Shown piece after piece: positions 4,526-11,486 of a stretch of 64,000 nt of DNA. The stretch's first letter is position 1. Each line of letters opens with the position of its first letter. The position numbers and the translations under genes were made by a program. Where the stretch lies: the sequence record DRR378314_1653; one strand, written 5' to 3'. Under the pieces are notes generated by a model. It was not told the origin of the DNA. It saw nothing but the letters and a program-made list of their open reading frames with translations, and made no database searches.

Positions 4526-5737
4526 ATCCCACATACTCACCCGTCCTGTACGAAACCCGCGGATCTGTTTGCGGTCGTCGCAGCTGGGGCCATTCTATTA
4601 CTGGTGACACATGGCCTGGGTCGGTTTATCTACACCCCACTGTTGCCGTACCTGGTGGATGACGGCCAGATCACCGCCGGGCAGGGCGCTGCGGTTGCCA
4701 CCTGGAACTACCTTGGCTACCTGCTTGGCGCACTACTCGCCATCCGCTGGCACACCATTCAGCATATCCGCATGCTGTTGCCCGCTTCCCTGGTGGTTCA
4801 CGTACTGACCACCCTCGCCATGGCCCAGACCGACCACTATGCGGCCATGTCTGCCGCGCGCTTGCTCAATGGCATCGCCAACGGCATCGTCTTCGTCCAG
4901 GCCCCGGCCCTGATTCTGGAATGGCTGGTGCTGCGCAACCGCGCCACTCTCAGTGGCCATCTCTACATCGGTGTTGGCTTGGGTTTGCTGGTGTCCAGCG
5001 GCCTGGTGAGTTTCAGCGCCGACGTGCTTGAAGGCCCCGAACGCTGGTGGCCGGCGGTGGTTCTCTCCATTCCCCTGGCCTGGTGGGCGACCGCGCGGTT
5101 ACTCCGGCTGGATGTACCGGTGAGGGCGCCAAGCAATGGCGAAGCGAAAACTAACAAGTCGCCTCTGTTCGATCGCGCGAGTGTGCCCCTGTTTCTTTCC
5201 TACGCTGGGGCCGGCCTGGGCTACATTCTGCCGATGACATTCCTGCCTTTGCTGGCCAAGGACCATCTACCGCCAGAACACTGGCTGCTGGACGGCGCCT
5301 GGTTCGTGGCGGCGGTGGCAACCATGCTTGCGCCATCGATCTGGAACTATCTGGGCGCTAAAATTGGCGATCTCCCGGCATTACGACTGAACTTCGTAGT
5401 GCAACTGGCCGGTGTCCTGGCGGCGGTGGTCCTACCCGGTGCCGTCGGCCTGGTGCTTTGTGCGGCTCTGGTTGGCGCTACCTTTGTGGGTACGGTCATG
5501 CTCACCCAGCGTATTGGCCGGGCCTTACACCCGCACCAGGGGCCGAGACTGTCGGCGGCCATGGTGTCGGTCTACGGCTTCACCCAGATGGCCGGCCCCT
5601 GGCTCACCAAGCAGTGGCTGGAAGCCGGTGGCACGCTGACCACGGCTTTTGGTATCGGGGTGGCGGCGCTGGCTTTTGGTGTTGTGTTTGCGTTTTTTGT
5701 GCCTTTGCCTGGGGAGTTTCGGTCTGCGCAGGACTGA
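4526..5737 (+). CDS. YbfB/YjiJ-family MFS transporter (start uncertain: ATC 4526 or GTG 4604)
   Basis: HGLGRFIYTPLLP and NYLGYLLGA motifs; the frame stays open upstream of 4604 and encodes the first TM helix. Confidence 0.85.
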   Translation: MPHTHPSCTKPADLFAVVAAGAILLLVTHGLGRFIYTPLLPYLVDDGQITAGQGAAVATWNYLGYLLGALLAIRWHTIQHIRMLLPASLVVHVLTTLAMAQTDHYAAMSAARLLNGIANGIVFVQAPALILEWLVLRNRATLSGHLYIGVGLGLLVSSGLVSFSADVLEGPERWWPAVVLSIPLAWWATARLLRLDVPVRAPSNGEAKTNKSPLFDRASVPLFLSYAGAGLGYILPMTFLPLLAKDHLPPEHWLLDGAWFVAAVATMLAPSIWNYLGAKIGDLPALRLNFVVQLAGVLAAVVLPGAVGLVLCAALVGATFVGTVMLTQRIGRALHPHQGPRLSAAMVSVYGFTQMAGPWLTKQWLEAGGTLTTAFGIGVAALAFGVVFAFFVPLPGEFRSAQD

Positions 5738-5749
5738 TGGCTTTGGGGC

Positions 5750-5844
5750 GGGAGCGGGGTGGTGGCATTATTTTCCTTGGGAATGGAACTCGCTTCGCTC
5801 AGACACCCATTCCTGGCGGAAAATAATGCCACCACCCCACTCTC
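5750..5844 (+). repeat. Long hairpin repeat, copy 1 (loop AACTCGCTTCGCTCAGACAC at 5787-5806)
   Basis: GGGGTGGTGGCATTATTTTCC...GGAAAATAATGCCACCACCCC perfect 21-bp arms plus inner GGAATGG/CCATTCC stem. Confidence 0.9.
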
Positions 5845-5951
5845 ATGTAACTCGCAGTTGTCGTGTCTGGTGAGACGGGCAAGTGCAGCGCAATTCGTGC
5901 AACACAGAGTCAGCCCATAGTACGATTTAGCGAATTGCCGGAGTTACCTAT

Positions 5952-6043
5952 GGGTGTGGGGGTATTTTATTTTTCAATAAAGAAAATGGTGTCTGAGCGA
6001 AGCGAGTTCATTTTCATTTGAAAAATAAAATACCCCCATGCCC
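5952..6043 (-). repeat. Long hairpin repeat, copy 2 (inverted loop)
   Basis: GGGTGTGGGGGTATTTTATTTTTCAA...TTGAAAAATAAAATACCCCCATGCCC around GTGTCTGAGCGAAGCGAGTT. Confidence 0.9.
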
Positions 6044-6085
6044 CTCCCCCAACCCGCCCAGTCCTAAAAAAAGCAAAACCAAACA

Positions 6086-8563
6086 ATGCTCCCAATCAAC
6101 AAAACCATCCCGGACCTACTGACCACCCTGGAGTCCGAAACAACCGTCCTGCTACAGGCCCCACCCGGCGCCGGTAAAACCACCCGAGTGCCACTGGCCC
6201 TGCTGGATACCCCATGGCGGGAAGGCCGGAAGATTCTGATGCTGGAGCCCAGGCGGTTGGCGGCCAGGTCGGCGGCAAGGTACATGGCCGGGCAGATGGG
6301 GGAAAAACCGGGCCAAACCGTTGGTTATCGCACACGGCTTGATACGCAGGTGACGTCAGCCACCGTGATAGAAGTGGTCACCGAAGGCATTCTCACGCGG
6401 CTGATCCAGAACGATCCAGCGCTGGAAGACTACGCAGCCGTGATTTTCGACGAATTTCACGAACGATCGCTGCAAGCCGATCTTGGCCTGGCCCTGGTGC
6501 GGGAGTCCCGCCAGGCATTGCGTGAGGATTTGCGGGTGATCGTCATGTCCGCAACGCTGGATACCGCCCCCATTGCCGGATTGCTTGGGGACGTACCGGT
6601 TTTGACCAGTGAAGGGCGAGCGTTTCCAGTCGAGGTGGCCTATCGGCCGATTCCCCGTAATGGCCGTATGGTGGATCAGGTGGTGGCGGTGATTCACGAA
6701 GCGCTGACGGAACAGCCGGGATCTTTGTTGGTGTTCCTTCCGGGCGCGGGTGAGATACGGCTGGCGGAAAGGCTGCTTCAGGGGCAGGTCGATGACAACG
6801 TCAGTGTGGCGCCGCTGTATGGCAACCTGAAGAATGACCAGCAGGACCGGGCCATAACCCCTGCGCCTGAAGGCCAGCGCAAGGTGGTTTTGGCCACCGC
6901 GATTGCCGAATCCAGTTTGACCATTGAAGGTGTGCGAGTTGTTATCGACAGCGGTCAGCAGCGCCGGGCGGTATTCGATGCCAATAGTGGTATGACCCGA
7001 TTGATAACCGGTTGGGTATCCAAAGCCTCGGCGGAGCAGCGCAAGGGGCGCGCCGGCAGGGTTGAGCCGGGCGTCTGTTACCGGTTGTGGAGCGAATCCG
7101 CCCAGTTCGGACTGGCTGAATTCACCTCGCCGGAAATACAGGAAGCGGACCTAGCGCCGCTGGTGCTGGAACTGGCCCAGTGGGGCGCACGGTCTCCAGG
7201 GCAACTGGACTGGATTGACGAACCGCCGGCCGCGCATTGGCGCCAGGCTGTTGAGCTGCTGCAATGGTTGGATGTGCTGGATGCCGAAGGCGCCATCACC
7301 GACCATGGCAAGGCGGCCCGGGACATGGGCGTCCATCCGCGGCTGGCGCACATGATTCTTCGCGGGCGTGCCCTCGGCTTTGGGTATCTTGCAGCGGAGC
7401 TTGCTGCCCTTCTGGAAGAGCGGGATCTTGCAGGTCGATCAGCAGGGGCGGATATGCAGGAGCGGGTTCGGATACTTCGGAGCCCGGGCGCTCGCCCGGG
7501 TGTGGATGCCGCCAGGGTTAAGTCGATAGCCAAGTCGGTGTCCCGCTTGGCGGCTGGCCTGCAAAGGCCGCGTGAAATGCCCACCGACGATGAAGTTGGC
7601 CGCCTGCTGGCGCTGGCTTATCCGGACCGGGTGGCACGAAAGCGGCGAGGTGAGGCTCCCCGATACCAATTGAGTAACGGGCGTGGTGCCGCCCTTCGAG
7701 ACGACGATCCACTGGCACGCCATCAATGGCTGGCCACCGCTGAACTGTACGGCAAGGCCAGGGAGGCGACGATTTACCTGGCGGCACCCGTTGACCCCGC
7801 AGTGTTGGAACAGGACCTGGCGAGTCACGTTCTTGAATGGGATGAAGCCGCCTGGGATGACGCTCGGGGCACCGTGGTGGCGCGCCGGGTCAGAAAGCTG
7901 GGACAGTTGATCCTTGAAGAAACCGCATTGCCAGCCCCCTCTCCGGAACTGGTGCAACAGGGCCTGCTCGCGGCAGTGCGTAAGAAAGGACTTGAAAGCT
8001 TACCCTGGACACCGGCGGCGAACCAATGGCTGGCCCGGGTCACCTTGCTGGCAAAGTGCTTTCCCGGTGAATGGCCAACGGTCAGCGATGGCTGGTTGAT
8101 AGACAACCTGGAAACCTGGGTTGGCCCGTTCCTGGCAGGGATGACCCGCTGGCGCGAGCTCGAGAAGCTCAATCTCGTCCAGGCCATGTCCAGCCTTTTG
8201 AATTATCAGCAGCAACAAGCGTTGGAAGAGCTGGCACCAACCCGCCTGACCATTCCCACCGGCCAAGCCGTGGCACTGGATTACACCGCCGACAATGGCC
8301 CGGTACTGGCGGCCAAACTCCAGGCCCTGTTCGGCTGGACTGAAACTCCGACAGTGGCAGGTGGAAAGGTGCCCGTGGTCATCCACCTGCTGTCTCCCGC
8401 CCAACGCCCGCTGGCGGTTACGGCAGACCTCACCAGCTTCTGGCGGAACGCCTACCCGGAGGTCCGCAAGGACATGCGCGGTCGGTATCCCAAGCACCCC
8501 TGGCCAGAGGATCCCTTGACGGCTGACGCCAGTCAGGGGACGAAGAAGCGTCCTGTTCGGTAA
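6086..8563 (+). CDS. hrpB: ATP-dependent RNA helicase HrpB
   Basis: APPGAGKTT, DEFHERS, MSAT and QRKGRAGR motifs; C-terminal RGRYPKHPWPEDP. Confidence 0.96.
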   Translation: MLPINKTIPDLLTTLESETTVLLQAPPGAGKTTRVPLALLDTPWREGRKILMLEPRRLAARSAARYMAGQMGEKPGQTVGYRTRLDTQVTSATVIEVVTEGILTRLIQNDPALEDYAAVIFDEFHERSLQADLGLALVRESRQALREDLRVIVMSATLDTAPIAGLLGDVPVLTSEGRAFPVEVAYRPIPRNGRMVDQVVAVIHEALTEQPGSLLVFLPGAGEIRLAERLLQGQVDDNVSVAPLYGNLKNDQQDRAITPAPEGQRKVVLATAIAESSLTIEGVRVVIDSGQQRRAVFDANSGMTRLITGWVSKASAEQRKGRAGRVEPGVCYRLWSESAQFGLAEFTSPEIQEADLAPLVLELAQWGARSPGQLDWIDEPPAAHWRQAVELLQWLDVLDAEGAITDHGKAARDMGVHPRLAHMILRGRALGFGYLAAELAALLEERDLAGRSAGADMQERVRILRSPGARPGVDAARVKSIAKSVSRLAAGLQRPREMPTDDEVGRLLALAYPDRVARKRRGEAPRYQLSNGRGAALRDDDPLARHQWLATAELYGKAREATIYLAAPVDPAVLEQDLASHVLEWDEAAWDDARGTVVARRVRKLGQLILEETALPAPSPELVQQGLLAAVRKKGLESLPWTPAANQWLARVTLLAKCFPGEWPTVSDGWLIDNLETWVGPFLAGMTRWRELEKLNLVQAMSSLLNYQQQQALEELAPTRLTIPTGQAVALDYTADNGPVLAAKLQALFGWTETPTVAGGKVPVVIHLLSPAQRPLAVTADLTSFWRNAYPEVRKDMRGRYPKHPWPEDPLTADASQGTKKRPVR

Positions 8564-8577
8564 GTTTTGTTCTTTAC

Positions 8578-8753
8578 CTTTGGCTTTGGGTAGGACTGAG
8601 GCCTTTGTGGGGATCGGGGAGGTGGGGGTATTTTTCCTTGGGAATGGAACTCGCTGCGCTCAGACCCCCATTCCTGGCGGAAAAATACCCCCATACTCCT
8701 CCCCCAAAACGCCCAGTCCTACCAAAATCCCCCAGTCCTACCCAAAGCCAAAG
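8578..8753 (+). repeat. Long hairpin repeat, copy 3 (about 8623-8693) nested in a 21-bp perfect outer inverted repeat
   Basis: GGGGGTATTTTTCC...AACTCGCTGCGCTCAGAC...GGAAAAATACCCCC; outer arms CTTTGGCTTTGGGTAGGACTG (8578-8598) and CAGTCCTACCCAAAGCCAAAG (8733-8753). Confidence 0.9.
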
Positions 8754-8766
8754 CAAACAATAAACA

Positions 8767-8794
8767 TTGCACCCAACCCAAACCTGTATAAAAT
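8767..8794 (+). promoter_or_regulatory. Candidate sigma-70 promoter for the ATP-grasp gene
   Basis: TTGCAC-16 nt-TAAAAT about 30 nt upstream of ATG 8825. Confidence 0.4.
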
Positions 8795-8824
8795 GCGATC
8801 AACCTAACCACGCACCCAACCTAA

Positions 8825-9643
8825 ATGAAACTGGTCTCTTTCGACATCTTCCGCACCTTGGGCTTCCCGGACACCACAACCCTCAAACCCGAACAGTTCC
8901 TGGCCCACAAGGAATTGCTGAAAGACGCAGACTGGGTACTGTTCCCCGAATACTGGCAGCTGAATGCCCTCGTTCACGGGCTGAAATGCCGCGTTTTCCC
9001 CAGTATTGCCAGCTACCGCATCGGTCACGACAAGGTGGAAATGACCCGGGCTTTCCAGACTGTCGCGCCGGAGCACACCCCATGGACATTGATCGAAGCC
9101 AACGGTCCGGAGGAACAGCAGGCGGTGTGGAAGGCCATGGTCGTACCGTTTGTGGCCAAGCTGCCCAAGGCCAGTATGGGTGAGGGGGTGTGGCTGATCG
9201 AAAACAGGGACGACTGGCAGCGCTATTGCGAGCGGACCAGCGTTCTGTATGCCCAGGAATACCTGCCGATTGATCGCGATGTGCGGGTGGTGATTGTCGG
9301 GGATCGGGTAGTATCCGCCTATTGGCGAACTCAGGCGGATCAGGGGTTTTACAACAATGTATCGCAGGGTGGACGTATTGATCGGGGGCCGGTTCCCGCC
9401 GTGGTGACCGATCTGGCACTGCGCCTTGCGCGGGAACTGGAGGTGGACCACGCGGGCTTTGATATTGCCCTGGTGGAGGGTTACCCCTACGTGCTCGAGT
9501 TCAATCGGTTATTTGGGAATCAGGGGCTGGGTCAAGGCAGTGATCTGAAAACCGCGATTCTGGATTACCTCCAGAGCCGGGCCGAACCTGAAGACCCGGA
9601 TGGACCAACCGGGCCCGCGCCTTTGTGGCCAGTAGCGGTATGA
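8825..9643 (+). CDS. RimK-like ATP-grasp fold ligase
   Basis: VAKLPKASMGEGV, QEYLP, DVRVVIVG, NVSQGG, GFDI and VLEFN motifs. Confidence 0.85.
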   Translation: MKLVSFDIFRTLGFPDTTTLKPEQFLAHKELLKDADWVLFPEYWQLNALVHGLKCRVFPSIASYRIGHDKVEMTRAFQTVAPEHTPWTLIEANGPEEQQAVWKAMVVPFVAKLPKASMGEGVWLIENRDDWQRYCERTSVLYAQEYLPIDRDVRVVIVGDRVVSAYWRTQADQGFYNNVSQGGRIDRGPVPAVVTDLALRLARELEVDHAGFDIALVEGYPYVLEFNRLFGNQGLGQGSDLKTAILDYLQSRAEPEDPDGPTGPAPLWPVAV

Positions 9644-9655
9644 TGTAAGGGCCTT

Positions 9656-9868
9656 TCAGGCCCTGACGTCCACCATGCTGCCCACGTTCTCCGCCGGATT
9701 CGCTCCGGTCGTCGCGACGGCGGTTTCCGTAACGCCTTCCAGTAACTGAAGCGCGCCCTGTCCGGCCATATCGATGGACTGTTTCAACACAGCCACCTGC
9801 GCCTGTTCGCGCACATTCTGCTGGCTCATCTGGGTAGTGCTGGCCGCGAGCGATGCGACGTCAGACAT
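9656..9868 (-). CDS. YjfB-family small protein
   Basis: QVAVLKQSIDM...ALQLL...GSMVDVRA pattern; GGAGG RBS. Confidence 0.75.
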   Translation of the reverse strand: MSDVASLAASTTQMSQQNVREQAQVAVLKQSIDMAGQGALQLLEGVTETAVATTGANPAENVGSMVDVRA

Positions 9869-10145
9869 AGGGGCCTCCGACAGTCTGGTGATTATTTGAC
9901 CACCCTACCACATCGATTGGATGTTTCCAGCCACGCGTATCAGAACGTAACAAAACCACTGATCAAGGCGACACGGTTGACACCATCGTCACGACCACGG
10001 GGCAATTGGGTGGAAGGCGATTATGGGTAGATATCCTCATATCCCGCCCTGGGAAAAGAACCGATGATCGCGCGATTGACGGGTACCGGATCGGTGCCTA
10101 TGTTGTTTTAACCACCTGTTTGCCCTTTGGAGGGAAACCCTATCC

Positions 10146-11321
10146 ATGACTGAGTCTGCCAACGCCCTTATCGCTGATTACTATGACGCAGAGACCTTTG
10201 CCCGTATCAAAGCGTTTGCCGATACCAAGGACACGCCCTGTGTCATCATTGATACCGCGACCATCAACCGTCAGTACGATGATCTGGTGGAAGGTTTCCC
10301 CTATGCCAATGTCTACTATGCGGTAAAGGCCAACCCGGCCCCGCAGGTTCTGACCATGCTGCGGGACAAGGGTGCCAGCTTTGATATTGCGTCGGTGTAT
10401 GAACTCGACAAGGTCATGGGCCTGGGCGTGACCGGGGACCGGATCAGTTATGGCAACACCATCAAGAAGGCAAAGGACATCCGCACCTTCTATGAGAAGG
10501 GCGTGCGCCTGTATGCGACGGACTCTGAAGCGGACCTTCGCAACATTGCCAAGGCGGCTCCGGGCTCGAAGGTGTATGTGCGCATTCTGACCGAAGGCAC
10601 CCTGACTGCTGACTGGCCGTTGTCACGCAAGTTTGGCTGCCAGACCGACATGGCCATGGATTTGTTGATCCTGGCACGTGACTTGGGCCTGGTGCCTTAC
10701 GGCGTGTCCTTCCACGTGGGCTCCCAGCAACGGGAAATCGGCGCGTGGGACGCGGCCCTGGGCAAGGTGAAGGTAATCTTCGAGCGCCTGAAGGAAGAAG
10801 ATGGCATCGAACTGAAGATGATCAACATGGGTGGCGGCTTCCCGGCGAATTACATTACCCGCACCAACGATCTGAAAACCTATGCGGAAGAGATCAAGCG
10901 TTTCCTGGATGAAGATTTCGGTGATGATTTGCCGGAGATTATTATCGAGCCTGGTCGTTCATTGATTTCCAACGCGGGTATTCTGGTCAGTGAAGTGGTG
11001 CTGATTTCACGGAAGTCACGTACAGCATTGCACCGTTGGGTGTTCACCGATGTGGGTAAGTTCGGCGGTCTGATCGAAACCCTTGATGAATCCATCAAGT
11101 TCCCGATCTACACTGAGAAATCCGGTGAAGGGGAAGACTGTGTTATTGCGGGTCCAACCTGCGACAGCGCCGACATCATGTATGAACACCACAAGTACCC
11201 GCTGCCGCTGAATCTGGCGATTGGTGATCGCATGTATTGGCTGTCCACAGGTGCTTATACAACAACCTACAGTGCGATTGAGTTCAATGGGTTTCCTCCC
11301 TTGAAGGACTATTACATCTAA
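10146..11321 (+). CDS. Fold-type III PLP-dependent ornithine/lysine decarboxylase
   Basis: YAVKAN, SFHVGSQ, NMGGGF, EPGR, GPTCDS and GAYT motifs. Confidence 0.93.
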   Translation: MTESANALIADYYDAETFARIKAFADTKDTPCVIIDTATINRQYDDLVEGFPYANVYYAVKANPAPQVLTMLRDKGASFDIASVYELDKVMGLGVTGDRISYGNTIKKAKDIRTFYEKGVRLYATDSEADLRNIAKAAPGSKVYVRILTEGTLTADWPLSRKFGCQTDMAMDLLILARDLGLVPYGVSFHVGSQQREIGAWDAALGKVKVIFERLKEEDGIELKMINMGGGFPANYITRTNDLKTYAEEIKRFLDEDFGDDLPEIIIEPGRSLISNAGILVSEVVLISRKSRTALHRWVFTDVGKFGGLIETLDESIKFPIYTEKSGEGEDCVIAGPTCDSADIMYEHHKYPLPLNLAIGDRMYWLSTGAYTTTYSAIEFNGFPPLKDYYI

Positions 11322-11335
11322 GCCAGCGGTAAGGA

Positions 11336-11424
11336 CGTGGGGTGGGGGGTATGTTTTCCGCCAGAAATGGGTGTCTGAGCGAAGCGAGTTCCATTTCCAA
11401 GGAAAATATACCCCCCGCGCCGCG
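11336..11424 (-). repeat. Long hairpin repeat, copy 4 (inverted loop)
   Basis: GGGGGGTATGTTTTCC...GTGTCTGAGCGAAGCGAGTT...GGAAAATATACCCCCC. Confidence 0.9.
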
Positions 11425-11456: not shown

Positions 11457-11486
11457 AAAGGGTCAACCTTCGGGTTGGCCCTTTTG
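11457..11486. terminator. Probable bidirectional intrinsic terminator overlapping the MFS stop codon
   Basis: AAAGGGTCAACC-TTCG-GGTTGGCCCTTT hairpin between convergent genes. Confidence 0.65.

Follow-up and report, generated by a model that had tools for sequence, protein, structure and literature searches.

A dispersed bacterial hairpin repeat with a near-invariant tip that may serve as an origin-type signal in single-stranded DNA

The four long hairpins found in a 64,000-nucleotide stretch of DNA from sequence record DRR378314_1653 (hereafter, the window) can be explained by the following account: the hairpins belong to a dispersed non-coding repeat, and the tip that they share is an origin-type signal that would be read by a replication protein encoded elsewhere. 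Taken as a whole, this account is advanced tentatively, with confidence a little short of even. The part of it that concerns the element itself, namely a dispersed, non-autonomous repeat that folds as single-stranded DNA (ssDNA) on the strand where the tip reads GC-GNA-GC (the GNA strand), is well supported and very probably correct.

A scan of the window with the loop 18-mer AACTCGCTKCGCTCAGAC gave four exact matches, at 5787-5804 and 8648-8665 on the plus strand and at 5991-6008 and 11373-11390 on the minus strand. Shuffled sequence gave a mean of 0.07 matches, and four were reached in 0 of 100 shuffles. No fifth site was found in the window, even with three mismatches allowed. A covariance model derived from 32 orthologous copies recovered the same four hairpins with scores of 60-102 bits and, apart from these, nothing above 14 bits over the 64 kb. 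These scans bear out the initial annotation of this DNA, which had described four intergenic copies in alternating orientation and no others in the remainder of the window. The outer arms and inner stems that it quoted are present in the sequence, as is GCGAAGC on the strand opposite three of the loops; the remaining loop has GCGCAGC at this position.

Each copy consists of a hairpin of 70-90 nt in which an outer stem leads, through an asymmetric internal loop that is conserved, to an inner stem of 7-8 bp and the tip. The length assigned to the tip is 19 nt, given that the base following the 18-mer is A in 143 of the 145 matches elsewhere (it is C in window copy 3). DNA folding of the better strand gave z values of -9.9, -8.4, -6.3 and -6.1, and the GNA strand was the better-folding strand in all four cases. 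Copies 1 and 2 lie head to head in a single unit with the ends AGGACTG...CAGTCCT. Copy 3 is a single hairpin within a 29-nt outer inverted repeat that has ends of the same type, and together these are likely to represent a collapsed two-hairpin unit. The outer ends of such units are inverted and constitute terminal inverted repeats. The features of the repeat in the window are as follows.

5730..5736, plus strand: AGGACTG, the left outer end of the unit of two hairpins, overlapping the upstream MFS gene at its stop codon
5752..5842, plus strand: hairpin copy 1, with a 25-bp outer stem, asymmetric internal loop and 8-bp inner stem (DNA fold z of -8.9 / -9.9)
5787..5805, plus strand: 19-nt tip of copy 1; the opposite strand, GA-GC-GAA-GC-GA, is predicted to fold as a DNA mini-hairpin that contains tandem G.A pairs
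5843..5951, no strand: variable spacer separating the head-to-head hairpins, differing in length and sequence among orthologues
5952..6043, minus strand: hairpin copy 2, inverted relative to copy 1, from folding and the covariance model; flipped in place in G060/L214
5990..6008, minus strand: tip of copy 2, from the 18-mer match
6059..6065, minus strand: right outer terminus, the reverse complement of the left, 20 nt upstream of the hrpB start
8578..8753, no strand: outer 29-nt inverted repeat around copy 3 (8578-8606 / 8725-8753), containing GTAGGACTG
8623..8693, plus strand: hairpin copy 3, with its tip at 8648-8666 and a GCA loop on the opposite strand
11336..11424, minus strand: hairpin copy 4, between convergent genes, with its tip at 11372-11390

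The AGGACTG left terminus was found again at the orthologous site in many relatives.

The pattern of variation within the tip is that of a DNA mini-hairpin. The most variable position, with T in 74, G in 50, A in 15 and C in 6 of the 145 matches on the written strand, corresponds to the middle base of GC-GNA-GC on the opposite strand, where it is flanked on either side by GA. The search pattern fixed the other tip positions; with one mismatch allowed, the remaining variation fell mostly at three further positions. A GNNA form of the loop was observed in two chromosomal copies, and the AAC... and ...ARACA bases that lie outside the mini-hairpin are near-invariant across phyla. GCGNAGC and GCGNNAGC are the two classes of very stable DNA mini-hairpin, and GCGAAAGC is far less stable as RNA than in its DNA form (PMC13037366). 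Stem mismatches reading G.A on the GNA strand outnumbered those reading G.A on the reverse strand by 224 to 54 in Marinobacter and by 495 to 54 elsewhere (raw counts). Following dereplication at 60% identity and trimming of the 3 nt beside the tip (148 aligned of 173 representatives), mismatches of the former kind were favored in 104 copies and of the latter in 10. No excess of G.U was present on the other strand of the dereplicated copies (34 versus 55). In sequence terms, therefore, the variable loop base within GNA and the strand bias of the G.A mismatches point to a DNA fold and not to RNA.

The alternative of a structured RNA element, such as an mRNA 3' stabilizer or a terminator with a protein-bound loop, is improbable on these grounds. 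Copies do often lie at gene 3' ends, with the upstream gene in the sense of the written strand at 39 sites versus 18, and the transcript of a long palindrome will fold in any case. By contrast, no Rfam family reached its gathering score in the window, or on the motif in 20 related loci, and generic microRNA-like hairpins were alone in scoring below that threshold. A Flavo-1 match in L019 proved to be a separate element, ∼420 nt from the hairpin. Terminator features (GC stem, short loop and T-run) were absent from all four window copies, and a separate terminator follows copy 4. Moreover, orientation flips are tolerated at one site (see below), and the loop and mismatch rules are of the DNA type. 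Of the two natures that the initial annotation had offered for the element, the structured RNA is not supported, in view of the lack of an Rfam match, the lack of a G.U excess on the transcribed-sense strand and the GNA/GNNA loops. The REP/REPIN-like ssDNA element with a loop read by sequence is supported by the constant tip, the partner searches described below and the strand-biased mismatches.

The window locus matched all 151 sampled genomes of the genus Marinobacter, and the tip was multicopy in this group, occurring in 136 of the 151 Marinobacter-like genomes (0-36 copies each, median of 9). Given that copies are found genome-wide in relatives, the clustering around hrpB noted in the initial annotation is incidental. 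The hrpB cluster lies 57-105 kb from dnaA in five complete genomes (G088, G010, G054, G078 and G074), in which copies are somewhat enriched toward dnaA, with 36-54% of sites in the first fifth of a replichore; these sites are partly shared and thus not independent. Beyond this genus, a scan of one genome per species returned at least 125 stretches with the tip, with titles that included Ralstonia, Stenotrophomonas, Variovorax, Lonepinella, Sphingobacterium, Prevotella, Clostridium, Lachnospiraceae, Nitrospirales and Desulfobacterales. The exact tip is borne on long hairpins in Pseudomonadota, Bacteroidota, Bacillota and Nitrospirota, and, among 145 distinct genome matches, 121 had complementary flanks exceeding all 60 shuffles. 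From one taxon to another, the same tip stands on unrelated stems, the flanking columns of the 145 matches being otherwise mixed. Within Pseudomonadota, 18 of 401 genomes carried the tip at 1-32 copies each, and 54 copies were counted in one Ralstonia genome. Close pairs were in +/- orientation in 43 of 54 cases. At 57 classed sites, the neighboring genes were convergent in 26, co-directional in 24 and divergent in 7. A plasmid search with a 186-nt copy as query gave no match; a 31-nt query matched mostly Ralstonia megaplasmids, along with chance-level phage matches. Copies outside Marinobacter often carry an end module, in which a small terminal hairpin is followed by a pyrimidine/purine hairpin with a purine tail and then by the long hairpin. 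By a loose pattern, 115 of 484 copies had the pyrimidine/purine module just upstream of the hairpin. In Ralstonia, Pasteurellaceae, Undibacterium and others (L259, L262, L266, L268-L270, L548, L550 and L563), an A/T-rich module with the potential to form an intrastrand triplex lies with the small terminal hairpin 5' of the long hairpin.

The tip core also occurs in the origin regions of phages and plasmids. Many matches without long arms were present in viral contigs, one group of which consisted of filamentous-phage loci with Zot-like and rep genes. Among 27 such loci, found by way of their origin hairpin (L633-L659), the tip core was present in 26 at a distance of 64-70 nt from the conserved origin hairpin, with the core on the rep-sense strand and a GNA loop in 15 loci and a GNNA loop in 11. 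Conservation starts at the motif edge, where the upstream sequence diverges. These loci match CTXphi and other Vibrio inoviruses, and the CTXphi-type match to the tip is 17-19 nt in length. In an annotated CTXphi-type record (L694 1204-1222), the motif lies at the rstR-proximal edge of ig-1, 11 nt after rstR, and the GNNA strand is the rstA-sense strand. The CTXphi ori(+) is placed in ig-1, and the rstA-sense strand would be the one that is displaced and packaged. This origin is described as 167 bp in length with inverted repeats on either side of the RstA nick (PMC4439123).

A 13-nt core of the tip was identified in ColE1 at 1332-1344, ∼140 nt past the origin by sequence reading, such that the resemblance to ColE1-type origin regions noted in the initial annotation is real. 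The core presumably falls within the ssiA region, and on the strand that is expected from the direction of replication to be displaced. The ssiA site is described as a primosome site exposed near the ColE1 origin (PMC3167613). In phiX174, GCGAAGC is present on the viral strand of the F-G intergenic region, which is also where the primosome assembly site (pas) lies. The phiX174 pas is itself described as a hairpin (PMC5778457). In 42 lambdoid contigs (L302, L307 and L327 groups), the tip follows directly upon iteron-like repeats and an AT-rich tract in an O-like gene. Two attC sites (L556 1460-1557 and L557 ∼1460-1560), out of 494 copies, are tipped by the exact 19-mer, and one of the two lies 34 kb from an integron integrase. 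A neighboring attC in L556 has a degenerate version of the 19-mer at its apex. Armless tips with short conserved flanks were observed in three other phage groups (L128, L136, L145, L330 and L363; the L134 group; L149 and L316).

These contexts can be accommodated in a proposed mechanism. Here, the strand bearing GTYTGAGCGNAGCGAGTT would be exposed during replication and would fold into the GC-GNA-GC mini-hairpin, which tandem G.A pairs would lengthen. The mini-hairpin may then be engaged by the priming or replication-restart machinery of the host, in the manner of single-strand initiation (ssi) or pas sites, and local DNA synthesis from the tip would re-template one arm from the other. Synthesis started at the tip could also invert the hairpin and, on rare occasions, a copy made in this way might insert elsewhere. 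Host priming or restart proteins are proposed as the reader because the contexts that share the tip have no element-encoded enzyme in common.

All-against-all clustering of 321 open reading frames (ORFs) from 160 loci gave no recurring protein family beside the tip. Pfam analysis of neighbors (51 hand-picked; 146 of 175 selected ORFs) returned mostly housekeeping genes, the others being one IS3-type transposase, one MUG113 and two phage proteins (an integrase and a Rep). In carrier genomes, the tip was beside 0 of 22 GIY-YIG loci (drawn from 10 carrier genomes), 0 of 13 DUF559, 0 of 9 IntI, 0 of 4 Rep_trans and 0 of 30 reverse transcriptase loci; HNH, IS91, IS110 and TnpB/IscB were not searched. 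Only 5 of 49 Y1 loci had the tip, all at the RAYT site described below. Tip pairs 540-1450 bp apart enclose ordinary genes, with the RAYT locus as the exception. The absence of a nearby transposase reported for the window is supported, and no transposase or nuclease is consistently linked to the repeat in the loci searched. Copies flanking HUH/RAYT or nuclease genes, which the initial annotation had thought worth seeking, occur at one RAYT site and are absent from all other Y1, GIY-YIG, DUF559 and Rep_trans loci drawn from the carrier genomes searched.

The main rival is a REPIN-like element that would owe its movement to an HUH enzyme encoded at no linked site, either RAYT/TnpA or a Rep of phage type, for which the tip would be the recognition hairpin. 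A RAYT (NF047646) sits between two copies in G005 (L150 880-2500). RAYT genes were found in 14 of 151 Marinobacter genomes, with the tip within ∼1.5 kb in 8 of the 14, and RAYT-bearing genomes are richer in copies (median of 21.5 versus 8, p of 3e-4, uncorrected for kinship). The head-to-head pairs, the intergenic sites enriched between convergent genes and the patchy bursts are likewise REP-like, and the tip-bearing phage origin is cut by an HUH Rep (PMC4439123). Set against this, 13 of the 14 RAYTs occupy one shared neighborhood (SDR / methyltransferase-like / AmpG-like; L166-L178) with GTAG-type repetitive extragenic palindromes (REPs) of their own, the loops of which are also GCGNAGC, and in G001 (L154), hairpins are present at the RAYT site without a RAYT. 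In addition, 21 RAYT-negative genomes hold at least 20 copies, no classical GTAG REP was found within 300 bp of 49 Marinobacter copies, and the Y1 and Rep_trans searches were negative away from the RAYT site. An unlinked HUH enzyme is considered possible but unlikely.

A further explanation, to which we assign a low probability, is that a small nuclease with site specificity for ssDNA (Ssn/GIY-YIG, DUF559 or one of that sort) would cut the hairpin, the repair of which would promote its spread. Ssn-SRM pairs offer a precedent for ssDNA hairpins across phyla (PMC11893778), and a few GIY-YIG-like cargo genes adjoin copies (MUG113 in L482; ORFs in L265 and L480, by eye). The SRM consensus, however, matched 0 of the 4 window copies on either strand, and the GIY-YIG and DUF559 loci were without the tip. 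By contrast, an SRM is present in 71% of SsnA regions (PMC11893778).

Orthologous sites revealed how individual copies change. At the copy 4 (odc) site, all 33 of the close genomes compared, which were chosen as best BLAST hits and include the window, had a hairpin, in one orientation in 25 and in the other in 8. On the gene tree, parsimony gave six changes of orientation. Repeated inversion at this site was considered, but the eight flipped alleles share flanks, and one inversion with allele exchange is equally plausible. Outer arms paired with their own partner at 0.91, compared with 0.74 for the partners from other genomes, and 21 of 28 distinct alleles paired best with their own arm; counts were made sequence by sequence, as MAFFT alignment lost the pair register. 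Among the arm differences are multi-base and indel changes, which affect both arms. Where copies 1 and 2 lie, a +/- pair was present in 13 of 18 relatives and a single hairpin in 4. In L214, the second hairpin is flipped and the right flank is replaced by the complement of the left flank, an inversion in which copying has lengthened the arm. At the copy 3 site, between hrpB and the ATP-grasp gene, 10 of the 18 relatives with both flanking genes had a pair, 1 had a single hairpin and 7 had none. Comparison of orthologous loci thus does yield copyless sites, albeit without a clean junction.

The initial annotation had taken compensatory change in the stems as a sign of selection on structure. 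The covariation itself stands, as shown by the 0.91 versus 0.74 comparison; the case for selection drawn from it is weakened, in view of the inversions, the arm copying and the two-sided multi-base changes. A single template-switching event can give rise to several compensatory changes, a longer stem and an inverted loop (PMC8794818). Because in-place inversion and arm copying are seen, and template switching can make such patterns, the covariation is not proof of selection. The evidence for function lies in the conservation of the tip and the strand bias of the mismatches, and not in the covarying stems.

The same observations bear on an explanation with no dedicated reader, in which the tip is a fast-folding, nuclease-resistant DNA cap for long palindromes that has been reused in origins, attC sites and repeats, and template switching keeps the stems perfect. 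The same tip is found on functionally unrelated ssDNA hairpins, GCGNAGC also tips the local RAYT REPs, and in-place inversion and arm copying require no selection (PMC8794818). Yet the near-invariant AAC... and ...ARACA bases outside the mini-hairpin are not obviously required by thermodynamics, and multicopy bursts would still require a copying route. A physical cap is rather improbable, if marginally less so than either a nuclease target or an RNA role; all three are less likely explanations.

Several observations weigh against an origin-type signal read by host replication proteins. The patchy distribution (18 of 401 genomes) is not explained by a universal host reader alone and fits a horizontally moving enzyme better, and the higher copy number of RAYT-bearing genomes points in the same direction. 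Neither a target duplication nor a clean junction from before insertion was found, and sites that lack a copy differ in gene content. Copies are long-lived at orthologous sites, and present-day mobility is therefore low or absent. The origin contexts have limits of their own: the phage origin loci are one homologous family, chosen with a pattern derived from two tip-bearing loci; the ColE1 core shares only 13 nt with the tip, was matched at one mismatch in 7 of 200 shuffles and is also near the ColE1 transfer origin; the phiX174 GCGAAGC is without tandem G.A flanks; and the 42 lambdoid O-gene matches are coding and belong to one module, and hence are weak. Finally, we know of no role for priming in attC sites.

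The remaining features of the window are neighbors of the repeat.

6086..8563, plus strand: hrpB helicase gene (TIGR01970), a neighbor only
11457..11484, no strand: ordinary bidirectional terminator-like hairpin, separate from the repeat, overlapping the end of the CynX-like gene

In addition to hrpB, the neighboring genes encode an MFS-like protein, a RimK-like ATP-grasp protein (assigned from Pfam on an orthologue), a pyridoxal phosphate-dependent decarboxylase and a CynX-like MFS protein. Elsewhere, Bacteroidales loci (L263 at G157:C71:52000-64000, L264 and L265) contain a cassette-like array in which hairpin units, all in one orientation, recur every ∼1.55 kb and alternate with accessory genes (acyltransferase, KilA-N, UDG-like and YhcG). 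A full hairpin copy lies between P2-like prophage head genes (L298-L300, L308, L321 and L376), and L547 and L566 show partial tandem duplications of the hairpin, with two same-orientation tips 66-106 nt apart. In two Marinobacter loci (L160 and L162), copies adjoin toxin-antitoxin-like genes (PIN-like and HipBA-like, by eye) and polysaccharide or sulfate loci.

One 19-mer suffices to find this family, through which hairpin repeats of the chromosome are linked with a motif from the origin regions of phages and plasmids and with some attC tips. Should the tip be a priming or loading signal, a route would be provided for palindromic repeats to spread without a linked transposase, and a conserved element would be named in a much-studied phage origin. 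A bolder form of this proposal, and one that we consider doubtful, is that the repeat is selfish cross-phylum DNA without an enzyme of its own, which displays a plasmid/phage-type signal for single-strand initiation on a long hairpin and exploits the priming of its host for its own copying, inversion and restoration to a perfect stem; dozens of potential restart sites would then be scattered over chromosomes, and the same tip would be an unrecognized functional part of the CTXphi-family origin. Irrespective of the reader, perfect stem covariation in bacterial repeats can go together with inversion and with the copying of an arm, and is therefore not to be taken as a sign of RNA function.

The family is apparently undescribed. 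The tip was not found in Rfam 15, in line with the Rfam results for the window and 20 related loci, or in the literature searched, a search outside which lay subscription journals, sequences given only in figures and the Weinberg 2017 supplement. In the Weinberg 2010 supplements, where alignment gap dots can hide matches to the tip, only the Burkholderiales-1 motif was analogous, and the portion of the Di Nocera 2013 main text available makes no mention of Marinobacter or Ralstonia (PMC3733652). An earlier description, for example of the Pasteurellaceae triplex module, is possible.

Comparison with known systems places the repeat close to several of them. It shares with the REP/REPIN/BIME-RAYT (and TIR/TIRYT) systems (PMC3733652) an intergenic, palindromic, multicopy, inversely paired and lineage-patchy nature, as well as the GCGNAGC loops of the local REPs and a GTAG in the outer end of window copy 3. 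That GTAG is the only one in the window copies and is not followed by a short palindrome. Whereas conservation in REPs concerns the terminal GTAG and a short stem, the present repeat is a 70-100-nt hairpin in which the apical tip is invariant and the stems change freely, and, away from the one RAYT site, no transposase flanked by the hairpins in the REPIN-RAYT manner was found. REPs of the CGTC type are noted to have no dedicated transposase (Di Nocera 2013, PMC3733652). The NTS/SRM repeats that accompany Ssn GIY-YIG nucleases are likewise cross-phylum ssDNA hairpin repeats (PMC11893778), but the SRM pattern and a linked nuclease are absent here and the stems are much longer. The BoxC/PIT/TMECO triplex repeats share with many non-Marinobacter copies a pyrimidine/purine hairpin with a purine tail and inverted pairing; in the part of PMC4666352 available, their module is G/C-rich and no tip hairpin is described, whereas the non-Marinobacter module is A/T-rich, and a pyrimidine/purine hairpin with a purine third strand is absent from the window copies. 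The Burkholderiales-1 motif (Weinberg 2010, PMC2864571) is also a multicopy hairpin, with a loop that begins AAC and is centered on GC-TTC-GC, but it has Watson-Crick pairs in place of the tandem G.A, a short stem and a different sequence. The attC sites are ssDNA hairpins, two of which share the exact 19-mer tip; the attC ends RYYYAAC/GTTRRRY were not found in the window copies, only L556 and L557 look like true attC sites, and an integron integrase was absent in 13 of 21 carrier genomes tested. With ssi/primosome sites and the CTXphi ori(+), the repeat has in common a GNA/GNNA mini-hairpin on the strand that presumably becomes single-stranded and, in ColE1, the 13-nt core; it differs in that the tip stands on a long stem, in many chromosomal copies and without a replicon. 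In summary, the repeat fails the defining tests for REP, SRM, attC and BoxC elements, yet it works like an element of the REPIN or miniature inverted-repeat transposable element (MITE) type.

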